A stretch of 32,000 nucleotides of DNA from Elusimicrobiota bacterium (GTDB lineage Bacteria; Elusimicrobiota; Elusimicrobia; UBA1565; UBA9628), in assembly GCA_027371715.1 (NCBI GenBank), contig DAHXMM010000022.1, forward strand, positions 1 through 32,000, given 5' to 3'. Positions 4,602 to 28,300 of the stretch are shown here, one piece after another. The translations under genes were made by a program, and so were the position numbers. The notes below the pieces were generated by a model that worked only from the letters and a program-made list of their open reading frames with translations, had not been told where the DNA came from and made no database searches. Each line of letters starts with the position of its first letter. The stretch's first letter is position 1.

Positions 4602-5855
4602 GTGTTTAAAATTTTAATTCTCATCGTTTCAATTGCGCCAGCCTGGGGGAGTGAAAACCCGCATCAAGACTTGGATTCTATCATCGCTGTCGCTGTCAAA
4701 AAAAATCCTGAGATTTTGCGGGCCAAGGAACATTGGAAGACCCTCATGGCTCAAGTTCCCGCCGAGGCCACCTGGAATGAGCCCGTCATTGGCTTTCAGC
4801 GAATGAATTTCCAAGGCGGAGACGCCGGCAACTATTGGTCGGTCGCGCAAGATATCCCTTTTCCGGGAAAACTCTCAAAAAGCGCGGAAATGAAGCGGCA
4901 TGAAGCCCTCATCGCCTATCAAGAATATCGCGCTCAAAAACTCAACGTCATCGCGCAAGTCACTAGGACCTACGCGCGGATATGCTGGCTAAAAGACACC
5001 TCCCAAATTCTTAAAAAAGATTCCGAGATTTTGAACGCCGTTTCCAAGGTCGCGGAGGCCTCCGTCGCCTCCGGCCGCGCTAGAGCCGATGAGGCCCTAT
5101 CCGCTCAGGCCGCTTTTATCAAGGTGAGAAATGCGGCAAAAGAAAGACAAGCGGAAAGCCTGGTCCAAGAGGAAGCCCTCAACGCCCTTCTCGACCAAAC
5201 GCCGGGAAACCGCTGGAGACTTTTACCGCCGCAAGAACCTCAAAGGCTCAACGTTGGCGCGTCGCAACTCGACCAACTCGCCCAAAAAATCAGCCCGGAT
5301 TACATGGAAGCGCTTCATCTCATCTCCCACGCTCAAGCCATGGTGACCCTGGGGAAAATGGGTTTTTTGCCGGATTTTCAGTTCACCGCGACCCAGGAAT
5401 CCGGTCGTCCCGTGCCGGCCATGGAGGAAAGCGCCTACGGGGTCAATCTCGCGATTCCCCTTTGGTTCTGGAAAGAAAATGCCGTTCTTAAATCGGCCGA
5501 GACCCATGCCCGCGAAGCCGTCGCCGCATCGAGAGAGGCCCGAAACGAAATTTTTAGGCAAATCCATTCGGAACTCATTGAGGTCAACCTCCACCAGGAA
5601 TTGGCCCAAAGCGACAAGCAAGAACTTATTCCTCTGGCGAAAGGGGCGTTTAAAATCGCGGAAAAAGGATACGAAGCGGGCCGCACCAGTTTTTCGCAAC
5701 TCTCGCAAGCCGTACGCGCTCTTTTAGACGCGCAGCTCAAATATCCGACCGAAGTTGAACTCTATCAGGAACATTTGGCCAATCTTGAACGCGCGTTGGG
5801 CGGACCGCCGAACCTCAAGGCGTCCGCGATGTCCAAGGAGGACATGAACCCATGA
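4602..5855 (+). CDS. TolC-family outer-membrane factor (CusC/CzcC-like)
   Basis: Signal peptide; LDSIIAVAVKKNPEILRAKEHW, LNALLDQTP, YGVNLAIPLWFWKENAVLKSAE, AEKGYEAGRTSFSQLSQAVRALLDAQ. GTG start with AAGGAG at 4591-4596. Confidence 0.9.
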   Translation: MFKILILIVSIAPAWGSENPHQDLDSIIAVAVKKNPEILRAKEHWKTLMAQVPAEATWNEPVIGFQRMNFQGGDAGNYWSVAQDIPFPGKLSKSAEMKRHEALIAYQEYRAQKLNVIAQVTRTYARICWLKDTSQILKKDSEILNAVSKVAEASVASGRARADEALSAQAAFIKVRNAAKERQAESLVQEEALNALLDQTPGNRWRLLPPQEPQRLNVGASQLDQLAQKISPDYMEALHLISHAQAMVTLGKMGFLPDFQFTATQESGRPVPAMEESAYGVNLAIPLWFWKENAVLKSAETHAREAVAASREARNEIFRQIHSELIEVNLHQELAQSDKQELIPLAKGAFKIAEKGYEAGRTSFSQLSQAVRALLDAQLKYPTEVELYQEHLANLERALGGPPNLKASAMSKEDMNP

Positions 5856-6958
5856 AATCAAAAATCCCCGCTCTTTTGACCGCTCTTATTTTACTCATCG
5901 GCGTTTCTTTTTTCCTCAAGAAGACGACTCCGCCCCCCGCCCCGCAAGAAGCGGCGAAAAAAATTCTCTATCAATGCCCGATGCACCCTCAAATCATTCG
6001 TTCAAGTCCGGGGCAATGCCCCCTCTGCGGAATGGACCTTCGTCCGATGGAGCAACTTAAAGAAACGGGACCCGTTGTCCCCAACCGAGCGCCTATTGCC
6101 GTCTCGGCGCGAAAAAAACAATTAATCGGGGTCACCTACGGCGAGGTTAAAATTCGCCCTCTCGCTGAAAAAATTGATGCCCCCGGACGCATCGCCTATG
6201 ATCCCAAGCTCTATCAAGCCGTTGAAGAGTACCGCCAGGCCTTTGAAGCCTTAAAATCCGTAAAATACGCGACGTCCGAAGCGGCTTGGGCTCGTTCCAT
6301 GGAAAAGGCGGCGGCCCTCAAACTCAAGCTACTCGGCTTATCCCCCGCCCAAGTTTCACAATGGCTTAAAAATCCGGAATCCGCTCAAAGCCTTCTTTTG
6401 GGAAAACGCGGCGAAGCGGTTTGGGTTTACGCCGATGTTTATGAGTATAATCTTCCGCTCATCCATCCGGGATTACCCCTCGAAATTCGTTCTCAAACCT
6501 TGCCGGGAAAGACTTGGAGCGCAAAAATTATTTCCATCGACCCCGTCATCAATCCCGAAACCAGAACCGCCCGCGTCCGCGCGCGCTTAGACGACGTCTT
6601 GGGGCTTCTCAAGCCTGGAACCTACGTTGACGTGACCATTCAGTCTCCGTTAGGAAACTTGTTGAGCGTTCCGGACGGCGCGGTGTTGGACACTGGAGAA
6701 AACCAATACGTCTTTGTCGCCGGAAAAGACGGAACCTTGACCCCCACGCCGGTCACGCTCGGGAAAAGAGCCCAAGGCTACATGGAAGTTTTGTCTGGTC
6801 TTAAAGCCGGACAAACCGTCGTCACCTCGGCTAATTTTCTCATCGACGCGGAATCCCAATTTCAGTCCGCGATTAAATCTTTCGCCAAACCCGCAAGCGA
6901 CTCAAGCAAGGATTCCTCTTCCGGCGCGATGGGCTCCATGCCCGGGATGAAGATGTGA
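5852..6958 (+). CDS. cusB: RND efflux periplasmic adaptor (CusB-like) with N-terminal heavy-metal-binding motif
   Basis: YQCPMHPQIIRSSPGQCPLCGMDLRPM, DVYEYNLPLIHPG, TWSAKIISIDPVINPETRTARVRARLDD; Met-rich tail GAMGSMPGMKM; 4-nt overlap with the upstream gene. Confidence 0.92.
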   Translation: MKSKIPALLTALILLIGVSFFLKKTTPPPAPQEAAKKILYQCPMHPQIIRSSPGQCPLCGMDLRPMEQLKETGPVVPNRAPIAVSARKKQLIGVTYGEVKIRPLAEKIDAPGRIAYDPKLYQAVEEYRQAFEALKSVKYATSEAAWARSMEKAAALKLKLLGLSPAQVSQWLKNPESAQSLLLGKRGEAVWVYADVYEYNLPLIHPGLPLEIRSQTLPGKTWSAKIISIDPVINPETRTARVRARLDDVLGLLKPGTYVDVTIQSPLGNLLSVPDGAVLDTGENQYVFVAGKDGTLTPTPVTLGKRAQGYMEVLSGLKAGQTVVTSANFLIDAESQFQSAIKSFAKPASDSSKDSSSGAMGSMPGMKM

Positions 6959-6975
6959 TGAAAAAGGATGAGTCT

Positions 6976-7006
6976 AAAAAAGAAGGCCCCGGTCTCCCGG
7001 GGCCTT
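6976..7006 (-). terminator. Intrinsic terminator (minus strand)
   Basis: Minus strand reads AAGGCCCCGG-GAGA-CCGGGGCCTT-C-TTTTTT: perfect 10-bp stem, 4-nt loop, U-rich tail. The plus-strand reading lacks a U tract. Confidence 0.88.
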
Positions 7007-7033
7007 GGATAGTTCAACGCTCGGCGTCTCTCA
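6976..7033 (-). ncRNA. Candidate small RNA of about 58 nt with bipartite antisense complementarity to the adjacent tRNA-like gene
   Basis: Bounded by a perfect-consensus promoter (7040-7067) and a strong terminator. It contains UGAGAGACGCC (complement 7023-7033) and UUGAACUAUCC (complement 7007-7017), each an exact 11-nt reverse complement of the tRNA. The transcription start is predicted from promoter spacing only. Confidence 0.6.
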
Positions 7034-7039
7034 CTTTTT

Positions 7040-7067
7040 ATTATAACGCCGATATCTCGATTGTCAA
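7040..7067 (-). promoter_or_regulatory. Perfect consensus sigma70 promoter TTGACA-16-TATAAT
   Basis: Plus strand attata at 7040-7045 and tgtcaa at 7062-7067; both hexamers match 6/6 on the minus strand. Confidence 0.8.
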
Positions 7068-7080
7068 GGGGTGTCGGATA

Positions 7081-7110
7081 TCCCCGCCGCGTCTCTTACG
7101 GCGGCGGGGA
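7081..7110. repeat. Perfect 10-bp GC-rich hairpin with 10-nt loop
   Basis: tccccgccgc-gtctcttacg-gcggcgggga. The minus-strand loop is CGTAAGAGAC. No following U tract. Confidence 0.9.
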
Positions 7111-7122
7111 TGTCCATCGAGA

Positions 7123-7194
7123 TTGCGGGAGCGGGACTCGAACCCGCATCGGCCGTTTGAGAGACGCCCGTTCTATCGATTGAACTATCCCACA
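7123..7194 (-). tRNA. tRNA-Glu(CTC)-like gene, structurally atypical
   Basis: TGTGGGA/TCCCGCA acceptor (7 bp with one G-U), GTTC/GAAC D-stem, anticodon loop CTCTCAA, GCGGG-TTCGAGT-CCCGC T-arm, discriminator A. Atypical points: D-loop AATCGATA lacks the GG pair, and there is a G-G mismatch in the anticodon stem. No encoded CCA. Confidence 0.72.
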
Positions 7195-7250
7195 GTCTCT
7201 ACCTATCATACGGGCCAAGAGCCGAGAAAGTTCCATCCAGGAGCCGCTTC

Positions 7251-10200
7251 ATGATTTCTAAAATTATCGAATTCTCCGCGCGCAATAAATTTCTCGTTAT
7301 TTTGCTGACTCTCGCCGCGAGTTTAGGCGCCTTTTACGCCGTTCAAAAAATGCCGTTGGACGCCCTTCCGGATTTGTCCGACACACAGGTTATTGTCGTC
7401 TCGAAATGGGACCAAGCGCCGGAAGTCTTGGAGGACCAGGTCACCTACCCCATCGTCTCCGCTCTTTTGGGCGCGCCCCAGGTCAAGGCCATTCGCGCGA
7501 CCAATGAATTCGGAATTTCCTTAGTCTACGTGATTTTCAAGGACGGCACCAATCTCTATTGGGCGAGAAGCCGGGTTTTAGAATATTTATCAAAAATCAC
7601 GGCGGAACTTCCCAAGGGAGTCAAGACTGAAATCGGCCCCGACGCGACCAGTCTAGGATGGGTCTATCAATACGCCTTGGTGGACGATTCCCACACGCTT
7701 GATTTGCCGCGGCTGCGGGCGCTTGAAGATTGGCAAATTCGCTACCAGCTTCAAAGCGTTCCCGGGGTCGCGGAAGTAGCCTCCATCGGCGGATATCAAA
7801 AGGAGTACCAAATTAAAATAAATCCTCGCGCCCTTTGGAGTTACGGAATTCCCATTACCCGCGTTCTCAAGGCCGTGGCGGAATCCAACAGCGAACGAAG
7901 CGGCGGGACCGTTGAGTTTTCGGGGCGAGAATTCATGATTTTAGGAAAAGGCTATTTAAGAGGCCTTAAGGATATCGCCCAAATTCCCCTGGGACGCGAC
8001 CCGAAAACCGGAACTCCGGTTTTGCTCAAGGACGTCGCTATTCTCAGCCTCGGCCCCGCCAGAAGAAGAGGCGTCGCGGATTTAAACGGACTTGGAGACG
8101 CCGTCGGCGGCATCGTTATTATGAGAAGCGGGGAAAACGCCCTCAACGTCATCGCCCGCGTCAAGGCAAAAATCAAGGAAATCGCGCCATCCTTGCCGCC
8201 GGGAGTTCGCCTTGTCCCGGTTTATGACCGATCAAATCTGATTCACCAGTCCATCCGCACGCTGACGGAGACCCTCGCGGAAGAAATGCTGGTCGTCAGT
8301 TTGGTCATCCTCTTTTTTCTGTGGCATTTTCCATCGGCCATCGTGCCGATCTTGACCATCCCCATCTCTATTTTTCTCGCCTTTATCCCGATGTCGGCCC
8401 TGGGAATTACGACCAACATTATGTCTTTGTCCGGCATCGCTATTTCAATCGGTATTTTAGTAGACGGCGCCATTGTCGAAGTAGAGAACGCCTACAAACG
8501 CCTGGAAGAATGGCAAGCCTCGGGCCGCAAGGGAGATTTTCACGAAGTTCGATTAAAGGCCTTGAGCGAGGTGGGTCCTTCGGTCTTTTTCTCGCTCTTG
8601 GTGATCGCCGCGGCCTTTTTGCCGATTTTTGCCTTGACCGGAGAAGAGGGCCGATTATTTAAACCCCTCGCGTACTCCAAAACCTTCGCGATGGCCTTGG
8701 CCGCGATTTTAGCCGTAACCCTGGACCCCGCCGTCCGAATGCTTTTCACGCGAATGGAGGGATTTAACTTCAAAATCCCCTGGATCAAAAAAATCGCCGA
8801 CGCCCTATTGGTAGGACGCTATTATCCGGAGGAAAAACACCCCGTCAGCCAAAGGCTTTTCAAAATTTATTCTCCCGTCGTTCGCTGGGTTTTGGAAAAG
8901 CCCAAAGCCGTTATTTTATCGGCGATTGCCCTATTAATTTTGAGCTTGCCTATTTTCCGAAGTCTCGGATCCGAATTCATGCCCCCTTTGAACGAGGGGA
9001 CCATCCTTTATATGCCGACCACTTTGCCGGGAATCTCGATTACCGAAGCCGGCCGAGTTCTTCAAATTCAAGATGAAATTCTAAAATCGTTCCCGGAAGT
9101 CAAAACGGTTTATGGAAAAGCCGGACGCGCCGACACTTCGACCGACCCTGCGCCCCTTTCGATGATGGAGACGACCGTCGTATTAAAACCAAGGAAAGAC
9201 TGGCCGAACGTTTCCTGTTTCGGCGGTTTTTGGAAATGCAAAAGTACCTACAAACAAATGATCTCTCAAATGGATCAAAAACTCAAGATTCCCGGATTTC
9301 CCAATATTTGGACGCAGCCCATTCGAAACCGCATCGATATGCTCTCGACCGGCATGAGAACCCCGGTGGGAATCAAAATTTTTGGGCCTCATTTGTCGGG
9401 CATTCAAGACCTCGGCGTTCAAATTGAAAAAACATTAAGCACGGTCGCCGGAACCCGCGAAGCGGTCGCGGAAAGAAGCGCCCAAGGCTATTACGTCAAT
9501 ATTCATCTTAACCGCCGGGCCCTGGCCCGCTACAATCTTTCGGTGGATGAAGCCAATTCGGTCGTCGCCGCAGCCTTGGGAGGAGCAAATCTCACGACCG
9601 TCATCAAAGGCCGAGAGCGTTTCCCCGTCAACGTCCGCTACGCCCCGGATTTTAGGGATAATATCGAAAAAATCAAGGAGACGCTAATTCCCATTTCCGG
9701 CGGGGCTCAAATTCCCTTGGCTGAAATCGCCGACATCCGCAAAAGTCTCGGCCCGGACATGATTCGAGATGAAAACGGGGAGCTGACCGGATACGTCTAT
9801 GTCGATTTAAACACTTCAAATATCGGAGATTACGTCCAAAAAGCGAAAGCCGCTCTTCAAAAATCAGTTTCCCCACCCCCGGGATATCGATACGAATTCA
9901 CCGGTCAATACCGGCAAATGAAAAAAGCGGATCAACGGCTTGAACTGATCATTCCGCTGGCGCTTTTCTTGGTCATTCTTCTTCTTTACTTTAACACGGG
10001 CTCTTGGATGGAAGCGGGAATTGTTCTCTTAGCGGTGCCTTTTTCAGCCATCGGGGCGATCTGGCTCTTGTGGATTTTGGACTATCACCTGTCTGTCGCG
10101 GTTGGAGTCGGGTTTATCGCGCTTTTAGGTCTGGACGCCGAGACCGGAATTTTCATGCTTTTGTATCTGAACCTGGAAAGAAAGGCCCGGGCCTCGACCG

Positions 10201-10457
10201 GACGACTCAATACCTTAAACGATCTCAAGGACGCGATTCACGACGGCGCGGCGAAAAGACTGCGGCCCAAGTTGATGACGGTTTCTTGCGCCTTCTTGGG
10301 ACTTTTGCCCGCGATGTTTGCTCACGGCGCTGGAGCCTCCATGATGAAAAGGATCGCCGCCCCCATGGTCGGCGGATTATTCACGTCCTTTCTGCTTGAA
10401 CTTCTCATCTACCCTGCGGTTTATCTTTTGTGGCGGAAAAATGAGATACAGGAATAA
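7251..10457 (+). CDS. cusA: CusA/CzcA-family heavy-metal efflux RND transporter, probably the monovalent (Cu/Ag) type
   Basis: DALPDLSDTQVIVVSKWDQAPEVLEDQVTYPI, SISIGILVDGAIVEVENAYKRLEEW-like TM4 segment, FMPPLNEGTILYMPTTLPGIS, GLDAETGIFMLLYLN. Good ribosome site AGGAG-7-ATG. Confidence 0.95.
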   Translation: MISKIIEFSARNKFLVILLTLAASLGAFYAVQKMPLDALPDLSDTQVIVVSKWDQAPEVLEDQVTYPIVSALLGAPQVKAIRATNEFGISLVYVIFKDGTNLYWARSRVLEYLSKITAELPKGVKTEIGPDATSLGWVYQYALVDDSHTLDLPRLRALEDWQIRYQLQSVPGVAEVASIGGYQKEYQIKINPRALWSYGIPITRVLKAVAESNSERSGGTVEFSGREFMILGKGYLRGLKDIAQIPLGRDPKTGTPVLLKDVAILSLGPARRRGVADLNGLGDAVGGIVIMRSGENALNVIARVKAKIKEIAPSLPPGVRLVPVYDRSNLIHQSIRTLTETLAEEMLVVSLVILFFLWHFPSAIVPILTIPISIFLAFIPMSALGITTNIMSLSGIAISIGILVDGAIVEVENAYKRLEEWQASGRKGDFHEVRLKALSEVGPSVFFSLLVIAAAFLPIFALTGEEGRLFKPLAYSKTFAMALAAILAVTLDPAVRMLFTRMEGFNFKIPWIKKIADALLVGRYYPEEKHPVSQRLFKIYSPVVRWVLEKPKAVILSAIALLILSLPIFRSLGSEFMPPLNEGTILYMPTTLPGISITEAGRVLQIQDEILKSFPEVKTVYGKAGRADTSTDPAPLSMMETTVVLKPRKDWPNVSCFGGFWKCKSTYKQMISQMDQKLKIPGFPNIWTQPIRNRIDMLSTGMRTPVGIKIFGPHLSGIQDLGVQIEKTLSTVAGTREAVAERSAQGYYVNIHLNRRALARYNLSVDEANSVVAAALGGANLTTVIKGRERFPVNVRYAPDFRDNIEKIKETLIPISGGAQIPLAEIADIRKSLGPDMIRDENGELTGYVYVDLNTSNIGDYVQKAKAALQKSVSPPPGYRYEFTGQYRQMKKADQRLELIIPLALFLVILLLYFNTGSWMEAGIVLLAVPFSAIGAIWLLWILDYHLSVAVGVGFIALLGLDAETGIFMLLYLNLERKARASTGRLNTLNDLKDAIHDGAAKRLRPKLMTVSCAFLGLLPAMFAHGAGASMMKRIAAPMVGGLFTSFLLELLIYPAVYLLWRKNEIQE

Positions 10458-10490: not shown

Positions 10491-11147
10491 TCAATGTCCT
10501 TCCGCCAAAAGAAGCTCTCCCGCGTAAAGTCTTTTATTGTCGGAATTAAACTCATGCTTGACGTCAACCAAAAGCTTCTCCAGAGACAATATCTTCCAGC
10601 CCTGGCAATAATAGACGCCGGGACTCTTTTGGTTCATCTCCAAGGATAAAACAAAGTGATGGACGTCCTGGGTAATCTTAAAATCTTCCGAGGGGGAAAG
10701 ATAAAATGAACGCTGGGTTGTTTCCACATTTTTCCGATTAAACGTCTTGCATTCGAGATAATTACGGCGCTCGTTTTGGTCCACGAATTCCAAATCGGGA
10801 TAACCCGCCGACTTTGTTTTTCCATTTACTTGCGGCTTTCCCGCCTTCCTCGCCCCAGATTCGATGAGCGCCTTCTCCACAAAAGCTTCAATGGCATTGC
10901 CCACTTCATTGGGACGCCGACTTCTGATGCCCTCTTTATTGATATACCTTTTAAAGCTGTTTGAGCCGTCTTTTTCATCAGACGGCTTAAATGGAACCAC
11001 GCGATGGCCCGATAGAGATTCAATGACGAGCCGAAAGGGAACGTCCTTGAGAGGCTCAATCATATGTTTGACGATGGATTCGAGTCGCTGGACATAAACC
11101 GCGTCCGAGACGAGGCTTTCCCTATCCTTGGTCTTGGGATAATTCAC
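10491..11147 (-). CDS. Putative type II restriction endonuclease (PD-(D/E)XK fold)
   Basis: GYPDLEFVDQNERRNYLECKTF fits a PD...ExK catalytic core. GTG start in a GTGA overlap with the upstream DNA methyltransferase. Confidence 0.7.
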   Translation of the reverse strand: MNYPKTKDRESLVSDAVYVQRLESIVKHMIEPLKDVPFRLVIESLSGHRVVPFKPSDEKDGSNSFKRYINKEGIRSRRPNEVGNAIEAFVEKALIESGARKAGKPQVNGKTKSAGYPDLEFVDQNERRNYLECKTFNRKNVETTQRSFYLSPSEDFKITQDVHHFVLSLEMNQKSPGVYYCQGWKILSLEKLLVDVKHEFNSDNKRLYAGELLLAEGH

Positions 11148-12466
11148 GGCGCCTCCTTGCGGAAAATAACAATGCGATTCGTATTCGTGCCCAGAGAATT
11201 ATTGCCGATGCCCCAGATATTCGACGTTTTCGTGAACCGCTGCTCGTTGACCATGACGCAAAGGCATTTAAAACCCGCGGATATTCCAACCGGAATGACA
11301 TAATCCTCGAGCTTAAGAGTTCCCTTGCGGATTTCGCCGACCTCGAAAGCGACATAGCCTCCAGGCATGGTCACTCGGAGCAAATCGCGAAAAACATCCT
11401 TCATCACGGACGCCCATTCCTTGACCGCCCGAGATATCGTTATTTTTGGAGAAATACTGGCGAAGTCAATTCCATTAAACCACAAGCGAAGCCAGTTATC
11501 CTTGGAGTATTCCACGATGTCAAGAAAAGGTGGAGAAGTCACCGTCAACTTCACTGATTCGGGTTCCACCTCCAAAACTTTTGCGGCATTGCGGCAGGCA
11601 AACAAGGCCTTCCGGGAAGCAAAATTCAACCGTTCGATATCCCTCAATGTCAAATCTTTCATTAGGGCTTTCGTTTTTTTGAGGATAATTTTTCGAATAT
11701 CCCTATATTCGGGAGTTTGATTTCTCTTCTCGTTGATTCGTTTTTGATCCTCTTGGGATGCCGCCTGATTGGGAGGAAGCGTATAGACGGAAAAAAATCC
11801 GCTCGAATGACCCGTCAGACGATTGGTCGCCGTCATCCGAATCCAACGATCAATATCATCTTCTTTTCCCTCGGTTTCTCTTTGATTGAGATAGGTTCTC
11901 AGGGAAACTATCTCGCTTTCCGTTATCGGGTGATAAAACATGCTTAAATCGATTTCCGCCCGTGACTTCCTATCCATTGGAATGGAATCCAAGCGCCTTA
12001 AAATTTGTTCCATGTCGGGGACGCGCAACCTTGGACGAGCCAATATTTTGCTCAGCGGATTTATGTCGTTTCCAACGGGAATGCGCCCCAAAAGCGCCGC
12101 CTCAATCGCGGTCGTCCCGCGTCCAAGAAACGGATCATAAACCCTGTCTCCCGGAAGAGTCAGGCGTTCAATAAAAAAACGCGGCAGTTGAGGCTTAAAG
12201 CAGGCGCGGTAGGACACTTCATGAACGGAATTGCCTTGCCTTTGGCGCGAAGTCCAAAATTCGCCTGTAAATACGGGGATATCAGCGCCTGATTTATTCC
12301 AAACGCCCAAGCGCGGGAGTTTAGACTCCAAAGGCGATTTATCGTCCAACCCCATCGCGGGTGAATTTAGAAATTCAAAAAACCAGCGGATTTCAGGGCT
12401 GACTTGCCCCTCTTTTTGAAGACTTAATTCCTGGCTAACTATCGGCGATCCAAAACTCATATTCAT
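11144..12466 (-). CDS. DNA methyltransferase of a type II-like RM system (N4-cytosine or N6-adenine specificity not resolved)
   Basis: DPFLGRGTTAIEAALLGRIPVGNDINP (AdoMet-binding region), TVTSPPFLDIVEYSKDNW (motif IV), PGGYVAFEVGEI. Start placed at the ATG at 12466 rather than the GTG at 12481. Confidence 0.88.
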   Translation of the reverse strand: MNMSFGSPIVSQELSLQKEGQVSPEIRWFFEFLNSPAMGLDDKSPLESKLPRLGVWNKSGADIPVFTGEFWTSRQRQGNSVHEVSYRACFKPQLPRFFIERLTLPGDRVYDPFLGRGTTAIEAALLGRIPVGNDINPLSKILARPRLRVPDMEQILRRLDSIPMDRKSRAEIDLSMFYHPITESEIVSLRTYLNQRETEGKEDDIDRWIRMTATNRLTGHSSGFFSVYTLPPNQAASQEDQKRINEKRNQTPEYRDIRKIILKKTKALMKDLTLRDIERLNFASRKALFACRNAAKVLEVEPESVKLTVTSPPFLDIVEYSKDNWLRLWFNGIDFASISPKITISRAVKEWASVMKDVFRDLLRVTMPGGYVAFEVGEIRKGTLKLEDYVIPVGISAGFKCLCVMVNEQRFTKTSNIWGIGNNSLGTNTNRIVIFRKEAP

Positions 12467-12469
12467 TTT

Positions 12470-12497
12470 AGTATACCACACCTCTTATACGGCTCAA
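12470..12497 (-). promoter_or_regulatory. Promoter-like TTGAGC-16-TATACT directly upstream of the methyltransferase start
   Basis: Plus strand gctcaa at 12492-12497 and agtata at 12470-12475; ATG at 12466 and a second in-frame ATG at 12460. Confidence 0.5.
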
Positions 12498-19324: not shown

Positions 19325-22300
19325 TTATAGAACATTCTTTCTCCGCTTTTTCTTCTTAAAAAGCGTTCCGAGAACTCCCGCCGCGGAGCCAAGGAAAAGC
19401 ATGATTTTAGCGGCATAGGATAAAATCTTATCTTTAAGCGAAATCGCCGCATGCGGAATAAAAGAAACCTGAAGGGCGGGTTCTAGTTTTTCCAAGCGGC
19501 GAATGTAACGCCGCCACCAAGAAACCTGGCGCGTCAAGGCCGCATCTCGCGCCCGGTCGGATTTGAGGCGAGATTCGACTTCCTGTTGTGAAAGGACCCG
19601 AATTTCCCGTCCATAAACGTCTTCATGAAGCCGATCCGCCGCGGCTTTGACGCTTGAGTCCTGGGCCGCAGTTTCCTTTCTCATGCGCTCAATTTCAAGT
19701 TGTTTTTTCTTAAGACTCGCCAGGTCCTTTTTTCTCAACGGGAGTTCTTTCTCTGTTTGATTGACGTATCCATGAACCTCTTTGGAATCGGATTGATACT
19801 CTTGCGCCCCGGCTTCAATATGAACCGTTTTCTGCGCGCGGTTGACCCAAATATCCTCGGGATTTCCCGACAAAACGATTTTCCCCGATCCATCAGCCCG
19901 CGGAGACAAGCCCACCTCCTTATCGCTTAAAGCTTTCGCCAAGGCTTCCTCGCCCACAGACCCTTCTTTTTTAGATTCCTCATAGGTTTTTCTCCGGCCC
20001 TGCATCTCGTTAATGACAAACTCAGACACTCCTCCGTTAAAATGAGCGAGGGTCCTCAAGCGCGCGGCATTAATGTCTTCCTGGTAATAGCGAAGGAGTC
20101 GCTCTAAAAACAGAGCGCCAAAATGAACATTCGCATCTTTATAACGTCCGCTTAAAGACGCTTCGCTGTCTCCGGGCATGAGAGTCGAACGCCCGACGCG
20201 CAAATCAGACGGGAATTGGCTTAAATCGTAGTAAGGAGTGACCGGGTCCGGAAGAAAGTTAAGCACATCCAAGGCCCCCGCGATATTGCGGAAAAACCCG
20301 TGGTGTTCCGTCTCTCCGCCTTCAGTCTTATACATCGCGACGCGCCCAAGATAATGCTGAAATCTTGGATCTCGCCCCGCCCACTCCACGGGGAAACCCA
20401 CGATTTCGCGCGGGACCTCCATGATCAAACTTCCCCAACGCCAAGGCATCACGCCCCAGTATTTTTTGAACGGAAGATGGGAGGAAACGTTTTGAGCGCT
20501 CTTTTCCAAATAGCGCTGATTCAAAAGAACGGGTAATTCATCGATTCCTTCCTTCGACAAACGAGCCTTAATTTCGAGGGCAATGCGCTTCGCATAATCT
20601 TCCGGGCTTTCACCCTGTTTGCTTGGCATATCTTTCTTAACCGCGGCGGAAACCTTGGTTATTTCCTCTTGGATTTGACCTTGAGTCTGCCCCTCCCGTC
20701 CCACCCAAACTTCATAATGACTGACGCGCAAACCAGGGTTGAGCGTTTTTGCCTTCGCGTTAAATATGTTTTTCTTGCCGTCGATCGTCTTTGACTTCAA
20801 TGTCCAGGACTTGGCGGCCTGATCCATTCCCGAAGAACTGGTATAGTATTGTCTTAAGCGCCCTTCTGAATCCATGACGGCGGCATAAATCGGCCCGCGC
20901 ACATAGACGTCGGCTCTTTGAGGCGACAAGCGATCGTTCAAGACGGAACGGCCGTAAACCGGGGAAGCTTGGGCATGAAGAACCGTTCCACGGGAATCCA
21001 ACCCCAAAATCAAATCGCGGCTGCGGTAAAGACTCCAAGTTTTCGAGCGCTCTTTAATGGTATTGGCCTCTTTCACTTGTTTCTTGGCGTCCGTAAACAC
21101 CGCTTTCTGGAGTTTCAAATTATCGCGAGCCGTATCCAATTTTTTGGATAAGAAGCTGACGCGTTTTTGAGCGTCTTTATACTGGCCGTTAGAAGATAAC
21201 TCCTTCTTGGTTTCTTCGCCTATCCGTTGAGCGTAGTTCGCCGCCAATTCCTTGTTTTTCCGCGGATACCTCTCGAGAACTTTCTCTTTGATGCTTCTCT
21301 CCACCTCGTTTTCGGCCCGCACGGCTTCCAGCATTATTTTCTGAGCTTCTTTTTCCTTTTTATCCGACTCTCCCAGATCTTTCGCGGCCTTAATGAGGCG
21401 AATCTGCGCTTCCTTAATCCCCCCATCCGCATCCGAGAACGCTTTTTTAGCCGCGTCGAAATCATCCCGGCTGAGATAAACGTCCGAAACTTCTCCTTTT
21501 TCATTTCTCGCGAAACCATATCCCGCTAATTTTAGCTCCGCGTATCCGGCCCGAAGTTCCGCTTGGCGCCTGGTCTCGAAGAAATCCATCAAATCTCCGG
21601 CTCCTTTTTTGGAAAGATAGACTCGACTGAAATCTCCCTTTACAGAAGAAGCCTTGAGAGATTCGAGAGTCTGGAACTTATCCGAGGGCAAAGCCGTTTT
21701 TCCGGTATAGACATAAATTTCGTATTGATCCGGCGACCTCGCCCAAGCCGCCAAGGCCGGCAACCGGTAATGCAAAAGCCCTGGGTTCTTAGAATTGAAA
21801 GCCTCGAAGAAAAGAACCTTTCCGTTGCTTAAAAGGCCTTGGGCCCCGAAAAGTTCTTGAACGGAATAACCCTTTTGGCCGTCCTCCGAGGCAAAATCAT
21901 ATTGACTCAGGCGTTCCGCCAAATTGATGACGCGAGAATCGTCCTTGACGCCGCTATTTGCTTCTAGTTTTTGCCGCTCGAAAGCGTCCGCTCCCCTGAC
22001 GAACTCAACTTTCATATTCGATTTAAGGAAATAGCGCCCACCCACATCGACGATTTGATCGTCCCCCTTATACGCGGGAGAGGCGCGTTTGGCGAGTTCC
22101 TCTTGAGTCAACCAACCCTCCACCGCCCACAAACGGCGGCCGTCCTTATCCACGCGGGTTTGGGCGTAGAGCGGATACAGTTTGGAACCGTGCTTAAGCC
22201 AATCGGCCCTCTTATTTTCCAATTCGGAGATTTTGAGGGCGACGGCGTTGATGGACTGCTCCGAGCGCCCTTCCCATCGTTCGGCAAAAAGACGGGATTT

Positions 22301-25300
22301 TTCAAGCATAATCAAGGCGTCCAAGGCGAGAATTCCGCGCCCGGATTCTTTGGAATCAATCTGGCGATCAAGGCTCTTGTGAACGTCATAGAGAGCGTCG
22401 AGCGTGCGAATGAGTTCGGCATTTCCTTGAACCTCTTTTAGGTCCAAGGTTCGGATTAAATCCTCGTCAAAAATCTGCTGGGCCTTGAGATAATCGTCCA
22501 AAAGCCCGTCTTTCAAGATAAAATCGTCGTTTTTCAAGGGCGAGGCGAAATAAGAATCAATCAACGCGGCCTTGGACAAATCTAATTGTTGATGATCCGC
22601 TTCAAGAGACTTAAACGCGGCTTCGGCTCTTGGAGAAACGGCGACCGCATTCCAATACGCATTGCGAAGTTCCAAGGCGGCCTGGGAATATTCAGTCCGT
22701 TTTTGCTCGCTTGAACCTAGCTCCCGCTCCAAATCTCGGCGCAAAAACCCAAGCTGCGGATCTTTATTTTCAATCTCGGTTTTTAACGCCGCAAGGCTGA
22801 AAATCAAAAGATTTCTCTTTCCGCGAGCGTCATTTTGGGCCAAAAGGCGAAGTCTTTCTTCCGATGAAAAATCTTCCGCCGTAACATCCTTGGAATCTCG
22901 AATGGCGGTGCGGTAAAGGCGTGCCACCGAATCGACGGAATCAATTAACTGCTGGGAAATTCCCAAACCGTGGAGATAGCGATCCTGTCGAATTATAAAA
23001 TTTGGATCTTCCATGCGGTCCGCCCAATATCCCAGGAGTCCGCGTTCGGAGGGATTTTTAGGCAAATTAAGATCGCCCGAAGCCCGTTGTTTTCCCAAAC
23101 TGAGATTTTTAAGCGAGAGAGCCGTATCGGAGGATTGGCTTTCCTTTCCCAGGGCTTTTAGTTCCGCGACTAAGGAAACGAAATTAGATTTTAAATCCGC
23201 CGACTGAACAATCAATTTTTCCTGGGCTTGAATTAAATTTTTCCGGGCGTCCAAAACGTCTTGATGAGCCTTGAGCGAACCGGATTCATGCGCGGCGGTC
23301 CAGTCCTTCTGTTTCAAATCGTCAATAGCCGCGGCCAACAAACGGCTGTCGGCTTGAACTTCTTTCATTCCGCCGGAAACGCGGGTCATTTGAGTATAAA
23401 GAACCATCTCTAGCTTCTCGAACTGCCCCTGGGCCTTGAGCTGTTCGCGAATGGAATCAGACAATATATTGGTCAACCCGCGTTCGATTTCCTGCGGGTC
23501 GGGGGCTTCCAAAAATCCGCCAAAAACAGGAGTTCCGCGGAAAATGCCGAAAGCCGCAATCGGCGTAATTCCTTGATAACTCATGTGTTCGGACAAAACA
23601 TCGGCCCGGATTTGATCCATGAAAACGTCCTTATCATGACTGGGCCCCAAAGCGTCCAAACCAAGGATTTTGGCAATGCGCGCTTTTCCCTCCGGAGAAG
23701 CAATCTCTTGAACCAAGCGAGGCTCCCCTCCGGAAAATTCAGCGCCCGAGGCTTCCGGAACCAGCTTCGACAGCAAACGCAAGCGATCCTCCGCGGTCTG
23801 TCCCTGAGCCTTTGAAAGCCCCAACAGCGCCCAAATTTCTTCCGCTTGAGAGAAGGTTTTTTGGCGAACGGAATCAATCATTCCCGTCCAATCGACCCCG
23901 GTTTCCTTGCTCTGATGCGATTGAACCCATTTGAGAAAACGGACATTTTCCGCGAAAGCGGCCAGCTCCGCGTCCGCCAACGCCGCCGCGCGCTCGCGCG
24001 CGATTTGATCTAAGCGGTCAGCCTTATCCTCGGATAATTTGGCCAAGGCAATCAAATCCGGTTCCGGGGTACCCTTGCTTTTAAGGCGCAACTCAATCCA
24101 CGGTTCCAAAAAGCCTCGGTTAATCGGAGTTTCATCGAGAGTTTGCCGCGCGTAAAAATAGCGCATGAACATCTCCGCCGGAGCCTTGTCAAAACCAGGC
24201 GCGGGAATGGGGGGCAAGGAATCCAAGCGGGGAACGCGAGCCACTTTTTCCTCTCCGTCAATCAGACGACGTCTGAGAGCGGCGAAGCTATCGGGCATCG
24301 AAACGGAATGAGCTGAACTCCCCGAATCAACTCCAAGACTGAGAAGAGATGCTTGAATGACCGCCTTTTGTCCTTTTAACTCTTCCACCTTGGCCAAGCT
24401 AAAAGGATCTCCCTTGGCGGACAAACTCTGAATCTCGGAATCGAGCATTTGAAGCCTGACCTGGTCGCGCGCGCGGAGATTCGCCAAATGAGAATCGAAC
24501 GAATCTTGTTGCCTTTCTTCCGTCAAAAGCCTGAGACGCGCCGCCATCACTTTATCGGCGCGCCCCGAATCTTCCTCCGAAAGCGCGCTAATCAGGCGTC
24601 CGATAGTCCGAGCCGTCAAGGAAATTGGATCAGCCGAGACGTCTTGTACTTTCAAGTTTTTATCCACCATCTTTTGATAGGCCTTGGCCACTTGGACGCG
24701 CGCCTGAAAAATGGTCTTTTGGGCCGCGACCAAATTCTGCTCCTTAAGCGTTTCTTGAAGCTGTTGGTAAGCCTTTTCCGGAGAGATGTCAATGGACAAG
24801 ACGGAATCCGCCGGTCGCCCCATCAAGACGTTGAGCGCCGAATGAGCCTCGTCGTTGGTTAAAACCATTTGAGCGCGCGACAATTTCGCGTTAAAAATTT
24901 CCTTTTTAATTTGGCTGACTTTCGCACGATCGCCGGAGGACTCAGCCCGGGACAATTCCCTTTGAAGCGCGGGAAGCGCCTGTTGGTCGATTTGAGCGAT
25001 GGCCGATTGCGCGGCCTTGGCCTCGACGATATCCTGATACATTTGAAGGGCCGTCTCGACTTTGAGCTTGGACTCCAAGGCCCCGTAATAGGCGGACTGC
25101 CCCTTGTCGGCCTTGACTTGCAGTTCTTTAAGTTCTTCCGGCTGAAAGCGGGCTCCTGGAATCGGCAGAATCGGAAATCCGGTAAAGCCGAAAGAAGGCA
25201 AAAACCCGGTGCCGGTCGCGGTCAAATCCACTCCGATCATCAAATTAATCCAAAATTTTTGAGTGACATGATTGTCGGCTTTCGCCAATGCCTCAAACTC

Positions 25301-28300
25301 TTCTTGATGAAGAGCCAAGGCTTCCAAGGATGAGTTCTGAAACGCGGTTTGAATGGCCCCGCTTAAATCCGAAACGCTCATCGGCGGCGCCATGGAATGA
25401 GATTTTCCTCCCACCGCCTCATCCATCGCGGCCCAAGCTCCGGCGGAAGCGGCCTGTGATTGAGAATTGACGGTCGCCCGAGCGTTCAAATTCCATAGGT
25501 TGATGGCTTGTCTCAATTCGCTTCTTGAAATTAAACCGTTGCGATAGGCTTTAATAGCGAATTCTAGTTCGCTGCTGGTCTGAGGAAGAGCCGCGGTCAT
25601 TTCCCCCGCCGTCTGTCCCCAGACGTCGGCTTCACGGCGTTCATTGCTTGCCAACAGACGGTATTGGGAATGGATGTCCTCCATTTCCTTGATATCGGCC
25701 TGGCTTTTGAGCAAATAACTCTTGTTTTTATCTTTTGAGGATGGGTCATAAAAAGGAAGCCTTAAGGTTCCGCCCATGCCGAAAATCTGCCCTGCCATCA
25801 AGTCCTGGATTTGAGTTCCGATTCCGAAGGTAAATTGATCGACAAAGGGAATCCAATCCATGATGTTGAAGCGGTCTTCGCCAATACGATCTTTTAGAGA
25901 TTTTTTATCCAAGGACCCAAGAATCTTTTTGAGGCGGTCGGGAGCGGCCACGAGGGAATGAATCTCCTTGACTAAGTTTTGAACGTCGGCGAGATTTAAG
26001 TCGTCAAACGGAGTCGGAGAAGACGGGTTTTTCCCGGCCATGATATTGTAGCGGACCCGCGCCTCGCTTAATTTCTCAGATGCCTCCGCCATCTGCGCCT
26101 GGGCCTTTCCCTTTTCAATGACGGAAGAAGCGTTTTGGAGCAAAAACGCCGCGCGCTGAACGGCAACCCGCGCCTTGACGATTTGAAGAGCGCTCTCTTC
26201 CCAGTCCTTGGTCAATTGAACCAAGCGAGACTGAAGCAAAAGACCGTTTTTATAAAGAGAAACGACTTTATTGTCTAAAAGCCCCTTTTGCGTCTTGGTC
26301 AAAGTCACCATAGTCTCGGTCCCGCTCATGAAACCTCCGGTGGCGGCCAGTTCCGCCGGGTCGTTGGAAACGGGGCCCGAGACAAAGCCGGCGTCTCCCA
26401 CCACCTTGACGTTGTCTAAAATCGCGCCCGCCGAACGCAAGTCCTTGATGTCGTGGTCCAAGGTTCCGATTTTCTGTTCAATGAGCCTTCTACCCACATC
26501 CTTGGCGAAAACCGCTTTAAGCTCGTTGAGATCTTTTTGGCCTTTTTGGGGTTTAAGAAAAGCCCCCATGCGCTTTTGATAGCCCTTGAGCGCTTTCCCA
26601 CCGTTTAAATCATCCGCGGCGCTGCGGGTCACTTCATTCCATAATTGAGAAAGACTGGCCGAGGTATTAAACATCAAGGACAAGCGGTTGTTATAGCCGA
26701 CAAACGGAGAACCGTATCCAACCGACACCTGCGTTCGGTTGGTCAGTTGCTTGCCGATCTGCGCATAATAAGCGTCGGCGGGCCCCAGCATTTGCCCCGT
26801 CGCGCTAAAAACAATTCCATTTTGGGGAAGCTGCACCGACAACTGATCAATGGCGATGTTATACTGCTGTCCCAACTCCCCGGTCGCGGTGTTGGAGATT
26901 CGAACCAAATCCACCGGCCTTCCCGAACTGTCCTGACCGCGAATCGTAAATCCCTTTAAAATCGTCGTGCCCAGGGTTTGCTGCGTAATATCGTAAGTAC
27001 CGGCGTAATTGGCGTAATAAAGGTCAACGGTAAACGGATTACTATCATCCTTAGAAACGACTCCCGATTGTTTAAGAAGAGAAGCCACGTCGAATGTCGG
27101 CCCGATTTTGGTCTCATAAAAATTCGCGCTTTTTCCGTGCGCGGCGATATCGAAGGTTTGGTTCAGACTCGGGTCAAGGCCCGTGAAGTCGAGATTGGCG
27201 GTCTCAAAAAATTGCCGCGGATCTTTCGCGAACAAAGCCTGCTGGTCGGCGTTTAAGCTCATGACCGGAGTCAATTGAATGGAGGTTTTGGCGTTTCCTC
27301 CGTAATAGTACGGTTGATTGGCGGAATTTTGCGCCGCCGCATCTCCAAAGCCCGTCAAACCGACGTAAAGTTTTCCATTCATTAAAAGCATCGCGTAATC
27401 ATTAAAGAGAAGAAGGCGGCTTTCATTGGCTTGGGACGCAAACGACATATTCGGGGGAACGTCCAGAATGTCGTGATGGATAATCGCCTCGAAATAATTG
27501 ACGTTATTTTTGCGCAAAGTCTCGACTTGAACGCCGACGCCCTTGTCTCCCCAAGGCGCGTTCGAGGCCCCGCCGGTTTCCGGCGGGGAATAGGTGTCGT
27601 AAGCCATGACGCTTAAATTACTTCCCATCACATGGGCGACGTTACCCAAGGTCACTTGATTGGTCGAACTCAAGCCGTAAGGAACTCCAAATCCTGTTTG
27701 ATAAACCAGATAAAAACCGTCCGCGGAATCCCCCAAATTCATGACCTGCGCTCCGGGGATGAGTTGTGCGATGTTTTGGGGATTGGCGAGAATGCTTTGC
27801 CCCAAGGCCCCGATGTCGGCCGAGGAGGCATTGGCTCCGCCGGACAAACTTGAAAGGATGTTGTTGACAAAATCGGGAAAATTCGATTTTTTAATCACCA
27901 AAGCCGAAGCCCCGGAGGATGAATTGAGTCCCATGCCCCAGCCGGAATCGCTCAGATGAAGGGAATCAAATTCCTGCTTAATCTGATTGGGAACGCGCGC
28001 CCATTCTTCATCCGTTAAACTTAAGCGCAAGTTGATGAGCTCTTTTTGTTTATCCCCGATTAAATCCATATCCGCTCTCAAAATGCGGTCGGCGCGGGAT
28101 AGATTCTCTTTGAGCAAGGTCCACTTATGATTGGCCTCAAGAACCTTGCGGGTGTCATCCTGAATCTGGGAAATCGCATGCGAGGTTTGGTGTAGCGCGC
28201 TGTCGTAAGGGCTATTGAGTTGTCCCATCCATGACAAAAGTTCGGATTTCGTGCTATTCAAACTGCTCATCGTGTTTTGAAGCGCCGTCATCATCGAATT

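Follow-up and report, generated by a model that had tools for sequence, protein, structure and literature searches.

A tRNA-like gene and a predicted small RNA with two-block complementarity to it in an efflux operon of uncultured Elusimicrobiota

In a 32,000-nucleotide (nt) stretch of DNA from an Elusimicrobiota bacterium (assembly GCA_027371715.1, contig DAHXMM010000022.1; hereafter the window), a transfer RNA (tRNA)-like gene is followed on the same strand by the gene of a predicted small RNA (sRNA) whose 5' arm consists largely of two blocks, each exactly complementary to a different part of the 5' half of that tRNA. The module formed by these two genes occupies, on the minus strand, the 290-bp spacer between two plus-strand copper-efflux genes, which encode a CusB-like membrane-fusion protein (MFP) and a CusA-like pump. 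It recurs with different tRNAs in relatives, defined here as loci with the same MFP/pump gene junction (L007, L128, L142, L138, L134, L139-L141 and L008), and the sRNA blocks change along with the tRNA. We propose, as a tentative reading that we hold at slightly less than evenly balanced, that the sRNA is a dedicated antisense RNA that pairs in trans with its partner tRNA and sequesters it. To our knowledge, bacterial base-pairing sRNAs act on mRNAs and on other sRNAs; an sRNA that co-evolves with the body of a tRNA would, if this reading is true, represent a new class of sRNA target and open a new route to the tuning or silencing of one particular tRNA species.

Anatomy of the sRNA gene and its tRNA-like partner

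The sRNA gene is preceded on the minus strand by a promoter, TTGACA (7067-7062) and TATAAT (7045-7040) separated by 16 nt, that matches the consensus at 12 of 12 positions. From the promoter geometry, transcription is predicted to start near 7034/7033, 6-7 nt past the -10 box, and to yield an RNA of ~57-59 nt (6976-7034). Block 1, TGAGAGACGCC (UGAGAGACGCC; 7033-7023), is the exact reverse complement of tRNA nt 27-37, which comprise the 5' strand of the anticodon stem and the loop with the anticodon. Block 2, TTGAACTATCC (UUGAACUAUCC; 7017-7007), is the exact reverse complement of tRNA nt 5-15, which run from the last acceptor-stem nucleotides through nt 8-9 and the 5' D-stem strand into the first part of the D loop; the complementary 5' half of the tRNA reads GGATAGTTCAA...GGCGTCTCTCA. 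Between the blocks lies the linker GAGCG (7022-7018), assigned by reading the sequence and aligning it with L134, the first three bases of which are variable (AAU in L134) and the last two of which, CG, are kept and are able to extend the pairing to tRNA nt 25-26. A predicted intrinsic terminator (6976-7006) starts at the base directly after block 2 and is composed of a 10-bp stem (7006-6983; eight G-C pairs), a GAGA loop and the tail CUUUUUU (CTTTTTT in the DNA). Folded alone, the sRNA presents a free 5' end and a strong terminator hairpin. The features by which a primary sRNA gene is recognized, namely its own promoter, a 3' end set by a terminator and conservation in relatives, are all found in the sequence, and transcription of the gene is predicted.

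When the region downstream of the tRNA was shuffled, an antisense match of at least 11 nt arose in 0.24% of the shuffles, and two such matches in colinear order are far rarer than one. Neither block has another mismatch-free copy in the 32-kb window. The bipartite pattern was found at none of 112 control tRNA loci with the same T-arm, ten of which had a single antisense match of 9-10 nt. In addition, the sRNA matched no Rfam family even at permissive thresholds, and full-text literature searches returned no described sRNA dedicated to the body of a tRNA. The initial annotation of the window had described a minus-strand tRNA-like gene with a CUC anticodon, a perfect TTGACA-16-TATAAT promoter with the first block starting at 7033, two exact 11-nt antisense blocks around a GAGCG spacer and a strong terminator from the very next base, in a layout for which it knew no described family. 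Each of these points is borne out here; a third antisense copy in the tRNA trailer, an inverted symmetry of the whole module and an open frame on the plus strand were absent from that annotation.

The partner gene (7123-7194, minus strand) is identified as tRNA-Glu(CUC) by ARAGORN, which finds no other tRNA in the 32-kb window, and scores 56.1 bits against Rfam RF00005 (threshold 29); the module tRNAs of the relatives are likewise RF00005 cloverleaves, with 65.8, 48.8 and 54.8 bits. It has U1-A72 and A73, does not encode CCA, lacks G18G19 in the D-loop and carries a G28·G42 mismatch in the anticodon stem. The departures from a canonical tRNA comprise U37 and A28·G42 in L128 and C33, A34 and C28·A42 in L142, whereas L007 shows only C27·A43. 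The anticodon stem fails to pair at one position, 28:42 or 27:43, in four of four module tRNAs, compared with 19% of 416 other tRNAs, and the non-canonical features are, as sequence traits, suggestive of a relaxed or altered function. The module is unchanged in same-species contigs from four metagenome assemblies, except for a single-nucleotide polymorphism at 7192 (U3 to C3) that changes the U3·G70 pair of the tRNA to C3-G70. We also note that the module anticodons CUC, GUC, GAC and AAC form a chain of one-base steps, and that the variable-loop and T-arm sequences are common to the four tRNAs; the tRNAs in this slot may have switched identity through point mutation.

Upstream of the tRNA lies a putative promoter, GGAACTT (7234-7228) and TATGAT (7210-7205) separated by 17 nt (7205-7234, minus strand), with the tRNA 5' end 10 nt downstream. 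The element GGAAC(T/A)T-N17-TAT(G/C/A)(A/T) is kept upstream of all four module tRNAs, a conservation that points to promoter function. A reading of GGAACTT as the target of an extracytoplasmic function (ECF) sigma factor was rejected, since the ordinary tRNA-Ser promoter in the same genomes likewise has a weak -35 element, which makes the module tRNA promoter unremarkable. Downstream, the 3' trailer of the tRNA (7076-7122, minus strand) forms a hairpin of 15 bp that lacks a U tract, its arms lying at 7115-7101 and 7090-7076. The third, imperfect antisense copy, TAAGAGACGC (7098-7089), which is directed at tRNA nt 28-37, falls in the hairpin loop and 3' arm; the equivalent trailer copies in L007, L128 and L142 are longer and extend to the variable loop.

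Two further promoter-associated features were observed within the module. On the plus strand, a promoter-like TTGAAC-18-TATCAT (9/12 matches; 7180-7209) is directed at the pump gene, with its -35 inside the D-arm of the tRNA and its -10 the complement of the tRNA's own -10 (TATGATA); this site could be one member of a divergent pair of promoters and provide the pump with a start of its own. The spacer of the sRNA promoter, ATCGAGATATCGGCGT (7046-7061, minus strand), is conserved in L134 at 14 of 16 positions, despite largely saturated neutral sites. It contains a near-palindrome centred on GATATC, lies within the palindrome of the module as well, and could on these sequence features be an operator.

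Complementarity and signs of selection in relatives

L007 (pump 88%, this and the following percentages being similarity to the window) carries a tRNA-Asp(GUC) and, behind the promoter TTGACA-17-TACACT, the blocks UGACAGAUGGGC-CAAU-AGCUACCC with the same terminator as the window. L128 (MFP 71%) has a tRNA-Val(GAC) and a 78-nt sRNA behind TTGACA-18-TACAAT, and L142 (MFP 65%) an aberrant tRNA (AAC, C33) and, behind TTGACA-17-TAAACT, an sRNA homologous to that of L128. The contig of L138 (MFP 66%) is cut, so that it holds the promoter (TT)GACA-TATACT and the sRNA only. In L134 (MFP 65%) the tRNA is absent and a window-type sRNA gene is kept, with the promoter TTTGCA-16-TATAAT. Short unrelated filler occupies the spacer in L139-L141 (MFP 66%), and the module is absent from L008 (pump 87%), in which the two genes are 12 nt apart. 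The source metagenome-assembled genomes (MAGs) are GCA_021810245.1 and GCA_027406845.1 for the L134 type, JAKAQO01 for L007 and GCA_027406935.1 for L128. Near-consensus sigma-70 promoters precede six of six sRNA genes, and the complementarity begins 5-7 nt past the -10 box; in L128, L142 and L138, a different stem sequence serves as terminator.

Each sRNA is antisense to its own tRNA: at nt 27-37 and 5-15 in the window, 26-37 and 5-12 in L007, 22-38 (with a 3-nt gap), 4-13 and 34-51 in L128, and 25-38 and 1-13 in L142. In cross-controls, no module sRNA was antisense to the tRNAs of other modules, and an ordinary tRNA-Ser, which lies 3 kb upstream in several relatives and is nearly identical across genomes, had no antisense partner. 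Net binding, taken as the predicted cofold energy of the unmodified RNAs after the cost of unfolding both partners, amounts to -18.2, -11.7, -8.2 and -20.6 kcal/mol for the cognate pairs of the four full modules on the diagonal of the cofold matrix, as against 0 to -7 kcal/mol for non-cognate sRNA/tRNA pairs; the L134 sRNA with the window tRNA gives -22.9 kcal/mol. When the pairs are tabulated by canonical tRNA position, 15 positions vary among the modules, of which 12 vary on both sides and none is broken. L128 and L142 show five differences in the acceptor/D block, each of which leaves the pairing intact or strengthens it, including a double change from C7-G to G7·U. The complementarity is cognate-specific and co-varying, as expected of an antisense sRNA-tRNA pair.

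The direction of the changes is also informative. With the transition types scored equally, the sRNA blocks contain seven G·U and one A·C mismatches (one-sided p ~0.035), a bias that favours pairing between minus-strand RNAs over both a structure in the plus-strand mRNA and a cause at the DNA level alone. The trailer copies, which lie on the same strand, provide an internal control for mutational bias, and their mismatches (4 G·U, 5 A·C and 2 transversions) look neutral. Between the window and L134, the flanking coding DNA is 76-78% identical and the third codon positions 53%. The sRNA gene is identical in the two at its -10 box, its 6-nt leader and 22 of 22 block bases, and three of the five linker bases and all four terminator-loop bases have changed, with a compensatory replacement of C-G by U-A in the stem. 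The pump of L134 is 87-91% identical to those of L128 and L142, yet its sRNA and terminator are of the window-clade type; this disagreement between module type and host phylogeny implies either exchange between lineages or sorting from an ancestral pool.

Free drift of the blocks and promoter beside a conserved tRNA, which the initial annotation had named as an outcome that would count against its proposal, is the opposite of what is seen, the L134 blocks being invariant and the linker drifting. The promoter-block-block-terminator layout for which it had suggested a search of related genomes recurs with different tRNAs and with blocks that change along with them, and the cofold that it had suggested gives the cognate-specific predicted binding reported above. 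The comparative data lend strong support to its central proposal, that of a distinct sRNA gene whose predicted product is made to pair with the tRNA next to it. Any of the roles that it had listed for such an RNA, as a tRNA antagonist, a guide for processing or decay, or a sponge for tRNA fragments, may apply. The sequences compared display the anatomy of the module, the cognate specificity and co-variation of its blocks, and signs that pairing is selected; judged from them, the module is real, non-random and under selection, and pairing is rather probably the property that is selected.

Several points weigh against this reading. The segments entered in the pair table had been picked for their pairing, and the 7:1 bias of G·U over A·C reaches only p ~0.035. 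Promoter and terminator alike are predicted. Every instance stems from a single locus in a single uncultured lineage, and the four full modules are two homologous pairs and hence represent few independent events; the contigs within each module type are identical, so that no population-level co-variation is measurable. The L134 sRNA stands without an adjacent tRNA, which points to a target elsewhere or to another role for the sRNA. A mature, modified tRNA may resist invasion, the energies being those of unmodified RNA. Lastly, the palindromic form of the module and its extra, decayed copy mean that DNA-level processes could yield complementarity without RNA function.

Origin, opposite-strand frame and genomic setting

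Taken as a unit, the module forms an imperfect palindrome with its centre near 7095 and with further inverted symmetry between ACGGCCGAU and AUCGGCGU and between AUCUCGAU and AUCGAGAU. The trailer copy (antisense to tRNA nt 50 down to 28) and the sRNA arm (antisense to nt 37 down to 5) together resemble one inverted pseudo-tRNA split by the promoter, and the 219-nt read-through RNA is predicted to form one long hairpin (-114.3 kcal/mol, z = -8.5; z = -4.7 to -5.2 in L007, L128 and L142). Because the module as a whole is an imperfect palindrome, it likely originated by inverted partial duplication of a tRNA gene. A decayed inverted duplication of the tRNA locus, the alternative that the initial annotation had offered, is probably right as an account of this origin, but it leaves the present conservation unexplained.

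On the plus strand, a reading frame of 99 codons (6955-7254) bridges the spacer, with a GTG/ATG start that overlaps the MFP stop (GTGATGA) and a TGA that overlaps the pump ATG (ATGA). Corresponding frames are found in L007 (3694-4011), L128 (3625-4014), L142 (3625-3936), L134 (3619-3753), L139 (3616-3717) and L140 (1903-2070); the frame is open in seven of seven filled spacers, its stop lying 3 or 10 nt past the pump ATG, and 3.1%, 0.5%, 0.5% and 0.6% of shuffles of the four full modules leave it open. The window peptide is hydrophilic and arginine-rich, with no Pfam match and no homologue among 5.8 billion proteins. The bridging peptides are wholly different between modules, tracking the antisense tRNA, and the stretches conserved between the window and L134 contain zero synonymous changes, which points to constraint at the RNA or DNA level. 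From these sequence properties we infer that the selected feature is an open, translationally coupled frame and not a protein, its likely purpose being the passage of ribosomes through the structured insert, which would avoid polarity on the pump gene. The module would be tolerated in the efflux operon because its opposite strand stays an open frame joining the efflux genes, and it offers an example of an operon that takes up a structured opposite-strand insert of 300 bp by way of a coupling frame. The idea that the frame carries an in-frame codon matching the anticodon was rejected, such a codon being present in two of four modules, about as expected by chance.

With respect to the fillers, the 94-nt unrelated sequence of L139 (3620-3713) keeps the A-tract of the lost terminator; L140 (1907-2066) and L141 belong to the same group. 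In L140, a 66-nt piece of this filler is tandemly duplicated, and its length, a multiple of three, preserves the bridging frame.

The position of the sRNA opposite the bridging frame is compatible with a different role, which we regard as possible but unlikely: the sRNA would be a cis-antisense regulator of the efflux operon that gates the passage of ribosomes to the pump, and the tRNA-like RNA, processed by RNase P/RNase Z, would be a stable decoy that soaks it up. The sRNA is perfectly complementary to the mRNA shortly past the MFP stop, at codons 8-27 of the frame, and L134 has both the sRNA and the frame without the tRNA; the traits of relaxed decoding (absence of G18G19 in the window, U37 in L128, C33/A34 in L142) suit a decoy of which only the shape matters, as do anticodons (CUC, GUC, GAC and AAC) one base step apart. 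However, cis-antisense transcription alone sets no sequence constraint, so that the invariance of the L134 blocks beside a free linker and loop goes unexplained, the duplex begins ~18-21 nt past the start codon, beyond the usual initiation window, and the effect on operon expression is itself a sequence-based prediction. Were the frame instead a real small efflux protein, with the RNA features secondary, its being open in all seven filled spacers and its start and stop overlaps with both neighbours would be accounted for. This we consider very improbable, given a peptide without Pfam match or homologue in 5.8 billion proteins, peptides that are unlike between modules and follow the antisense tRNA, conserved stretches of the window and L134 without synonymous changes, and the lack of any spacer in L008.

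A second set of alternatives arises from the palindrome itself. The module could be a non-functional relic, namely an inverted partial tRNA duplication whose arms are kept alike by gene conversion or template switching in a quasi-palindrome, with an incidental promoter and terminator; inverted symmetry that reaches past the blocks, the long hairpin of the read-through RNA in the window and relatives, the split inverted pseudo-tRNA and the neutral decay of the trailer copies all fit such a history. We judge it rather improbable as an explanation of the present module, since it predicts neither six near-consensus promoters with aligned starts and compensatory terminator changes, nor a G·U bias confined to the sRNA blocks, nor invariant blocks beside a changed linker and loop, nor an L134 sRNA that outlives its tRNA arm. 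Alternatively, the 219-nt read-through precursor, from the tRNA promoter to the terminator at 6976, might act as a cis switch that picks the cloverleaf or the long hairpin and thereby gates maturation or makes a substrate for RNase III. The minimum free energy structure of this precursor, in which the tRNA 5' half pairs with the sRNA region, has a similar topology in L007, L128 and L142, the trailer hairpin of the window lacks a U tract, and same-strand pairing and pairing in trans agree equally well with the G·U bias. Such a switch is nonetheless quite improbable: a cis element has no need of a conserved strong internal promoter, in L007 the trailer hairpin and its U tract would stop transcription of the tRNA ahead of the sRNA, only the sRNA is present in L134, and the tRNA, being transcribed first, would fold before the antisense arm exists. 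We give almost no credence to the remaining proposal, that the inverted repeats bound a DNA segment which can flip and thereby turn a strong promoter towards the pump. The consensus promoter is indeed flanked by inverted repeats, but ~20 independent contigs all show a single orientation, no recombinase gene adjoins the module and no recombinase domain occurs in the flanking genes; moreover, inversion would wreck the tRNA, and the repeats are bipartite with unequal spacers. An invertible promoter switch was rejected on these grounds, as was an element resembling a miniature inverted-repeat transposable element (MITE), the module being single-copy in the 32-kb window and having no target-site duplication relative to the empty L008 site.

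The flanking genes encode a CusB-like MFP with a heavy-metal-binding domain (5852-6958, plus strand; Pfam HlyD_D23 and HMBD) and a CusA-like efflux pump of the resistance-nodulation-division (RND) type (7251-10457, plus strand; Pfam ACR_tran, E = 2.9e-217), and a gene for an outer-membrane factor lies upstream of both. The host belongs to an uncultured lineage represented by MAGs only. The exact 27-nt 3' half of the window tRNA had zero matches in 185,579 species genomes, which indicates that this tRNA is not widespread. A scan of JGI metagenomes by terminator returned nothing but an unrelated contig from TARA in which a generic terminator follows a dksA-like gene, and a protein search with the pump N-terminus was saturated by fragments at 60-67% identity and gave no new relatives. 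Scans of viral contigs with the window sRNA and with the tRNA 5' half yielded no matches, and BLAST against plasmids and phages yielded only generic tRNA similarity.

In L128 (559-830), and also in L134, L139 and L008, two tandem direct repeats lie downstream of tRNA-Ser(UGA), each ending with the tRNA-Ser 3' end AATCCCACCCTCTCCGT. These repeats look like scars of integrative elements, and in that clade the efflux operon may lie within an island adjoining tRNA-Ser. Elsewhere in the window, more than a third of the sequence is taken up by one open reading frame (ORF) of 4,212 codons (19325-31963, minus strand), and a DNA methylase gene with an N6_N4_Mtase domain (10491-12481, minus strand), which does not adjoin the module, overlaps a 218-aa ORF that lies upstream of it and has no family match, and with which it may form a restriction-modification or defence pair. 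Unrelated to the cus module is an odd nested or tandem tRNA arrangement in the viral contig IMGVR_UViG_3300017658_000249 (L034, 3730-3870), where tRNA-like acceptor halves GGTCCCG ... CGGGACCA enclose two cloverleaf-like units, the second of which holds GACAAACCC, antisense to the anticodon arm of the first.

Proposed mechanism and comparison with known systems

For the reading that we tentatively favour, an antisense sRNA that sequesters its partner tRNA in trans, we infer that the sRNA is transcribed and pairs in vivo, and likewise in which direction control runs and to what physiological end, as follows. Downstream of an accessory tRNA-like gene, an independently transcribed sRNA of ~57 nt, consisting of a short 5' arm and a terminator hairpin, would use this arm to pair in trans with the 5' half of the tRNA or of its precursor. 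Pairing would nucleate between the 5' end of the sRNA and the exposed, pre-stacked anticodon loop (nt 37 down to 32) and spread through the next five sRNA bases into the 5' strand of the anticodon stem; as the tRNA stem is mismatched and the match to the sRNA perfect, strand displacement would be downhill. Block 2 would then engage the 5' strands of the D stem and of the acceptor-stem end, leaving the D loop looped out. The outcome would be an unfolded tRNA that can neither be charged nor decode and that is possibly exposed to nucleases and decays, such that the sRNA would serve as a dedicated anti-tRNA that sets the level of its partner.

A more specific purpose, which we think rather unlikely, is that of an RNA-only addiction or immunity cassette. 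In such a cassette, the free form of a stable tRNA-shaped RNA would do harm or exert a potent effect, for example by off-identity decoding, and would be neutralized through unfolding by a short-lived sRNA made from a stronger promoter; lineages would swap orthogonal specificities (Glu, Asp, Val and Val*) at one fixed site, and the host operon would accommodate the parasite through an opposite strand that stays translatable. The four mutually orthogonal tRNA/sRNA pairs offer material for studying how RNA invades a folded tRNA, and they could become programmable tRNA switches, for instance in controlling suppressor tRNAs.

The enterobacterial RybB and OmrA/B are trans-encoded sRNAs with 5' seeds and intrinsic terminators, and their targets are mRNAs or other sRNAs. 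The module sRNA resembles them in being, by prediction, a short primary transcript with a single-stranded 5' seed, a U-tailed terminator hairpin and a strong promoter of its own, but differs in its complementarity to a tRNA body, in two blocks of 22-27 nt in total, and in having an adjacent, co-varying target gene. A connection between tRNA transcription and sRNAs is known from 3'ETS-leuZ, a spacer of a tRNA precursor that acts as a sponge by pairing with RyhB and RybB, sRNAs with mRNA regulons (as cited in, for example, PMC6191717 and bioRxiv 10.1101/2021.04.25.441314). The module shares with 3'ETS-leuZ the tie, by pairing, between a tRNA transcription unit and an sRNA, as well as the logic of mutual titration, whereas the partner in the module is the tRNA body and not a spacer. 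The trailer copy of the module has the same sense as the sRNA and is thus unable to sponge it.

In the CreTA (type VIII) systems, the CreT RNA sequesters a rare tRNA through a translated mini-ORF of rare codons, and the antitoxin is a CRISPR-like guide that needs Cascade (PMC8501985, PMC10097628). The module is similarly a compact, fast-evolving and patchily distributed set of two RNAs with its own specificity, in which a small RNA would disable a specific tRNA; it differs in that the proposed action is antisense pairing and not translation of rare codons. Membership in CreTA was rejected, as neither creA-like repeats nor cas genes are seen beside the module and its neighbours are efflux genes, the rest of the window not having been screened for cas genes.

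Archaeal C/D-box sRNAs guide the methylation of tRNAs with two guides of 10-12 nt. The module sRNA likewise has two short segments that match nearby sites in one tRNA, but it is bacterial and has a sigma-70 promoter and an intrinsic terminator; guide sRNAs for pre-tRNA offer a further comparison (compare PMC2651775). A C/D-box guide was rejected, since the C (RUGAUGA), D (CUGA) and C'/D' boxes are absent from the 59-nt sequence, and the sole Rfam C/D match scores 13 bits (threshold 38) and falls outside the sRNA, on the opposite strand.

T-box leaders are RNAs of ~200 nt before amino-acid genes, and they contact a folded tRNA solely at its NCCA end and at the anticodon with one additional base. 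As in the T-box, a bacterial RNA beside an intrinsic terminator would recognize a specific tRNA partly through its anticodon. The module sRNA would, in contrast, pair with 22-27 nt of the 5' half and unfold the tRNA, and a T-box was rejected because there is no Rfam match at E <=5, only ~27 nt precede the terminator and no coding gene follows.

In CopA/CopT, RNA I/RNA II and Sok/hok, the partners are made from opposite strands of the same DNA, so that complementarity is automatic. In the module, by contrast, the two genes are separate and on the same strand, so that the complementarity must be maintained, and the target is neither an mRNA nor a replication primer. A type I toxin-antitoxin system was rejected, as the sole ORF of the region is the bridging frame, which encodes a hydrophilic, arginine-rich peptide without family or homologue. 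What the module would share with these antisense pairs is nucleation at a U-turn loop, fast propagation, specificity classes that arise by co-variation and an antisense promoter stronger than that of the target. A member of none of the families compared, the module is one that resembles an antisense regulator.

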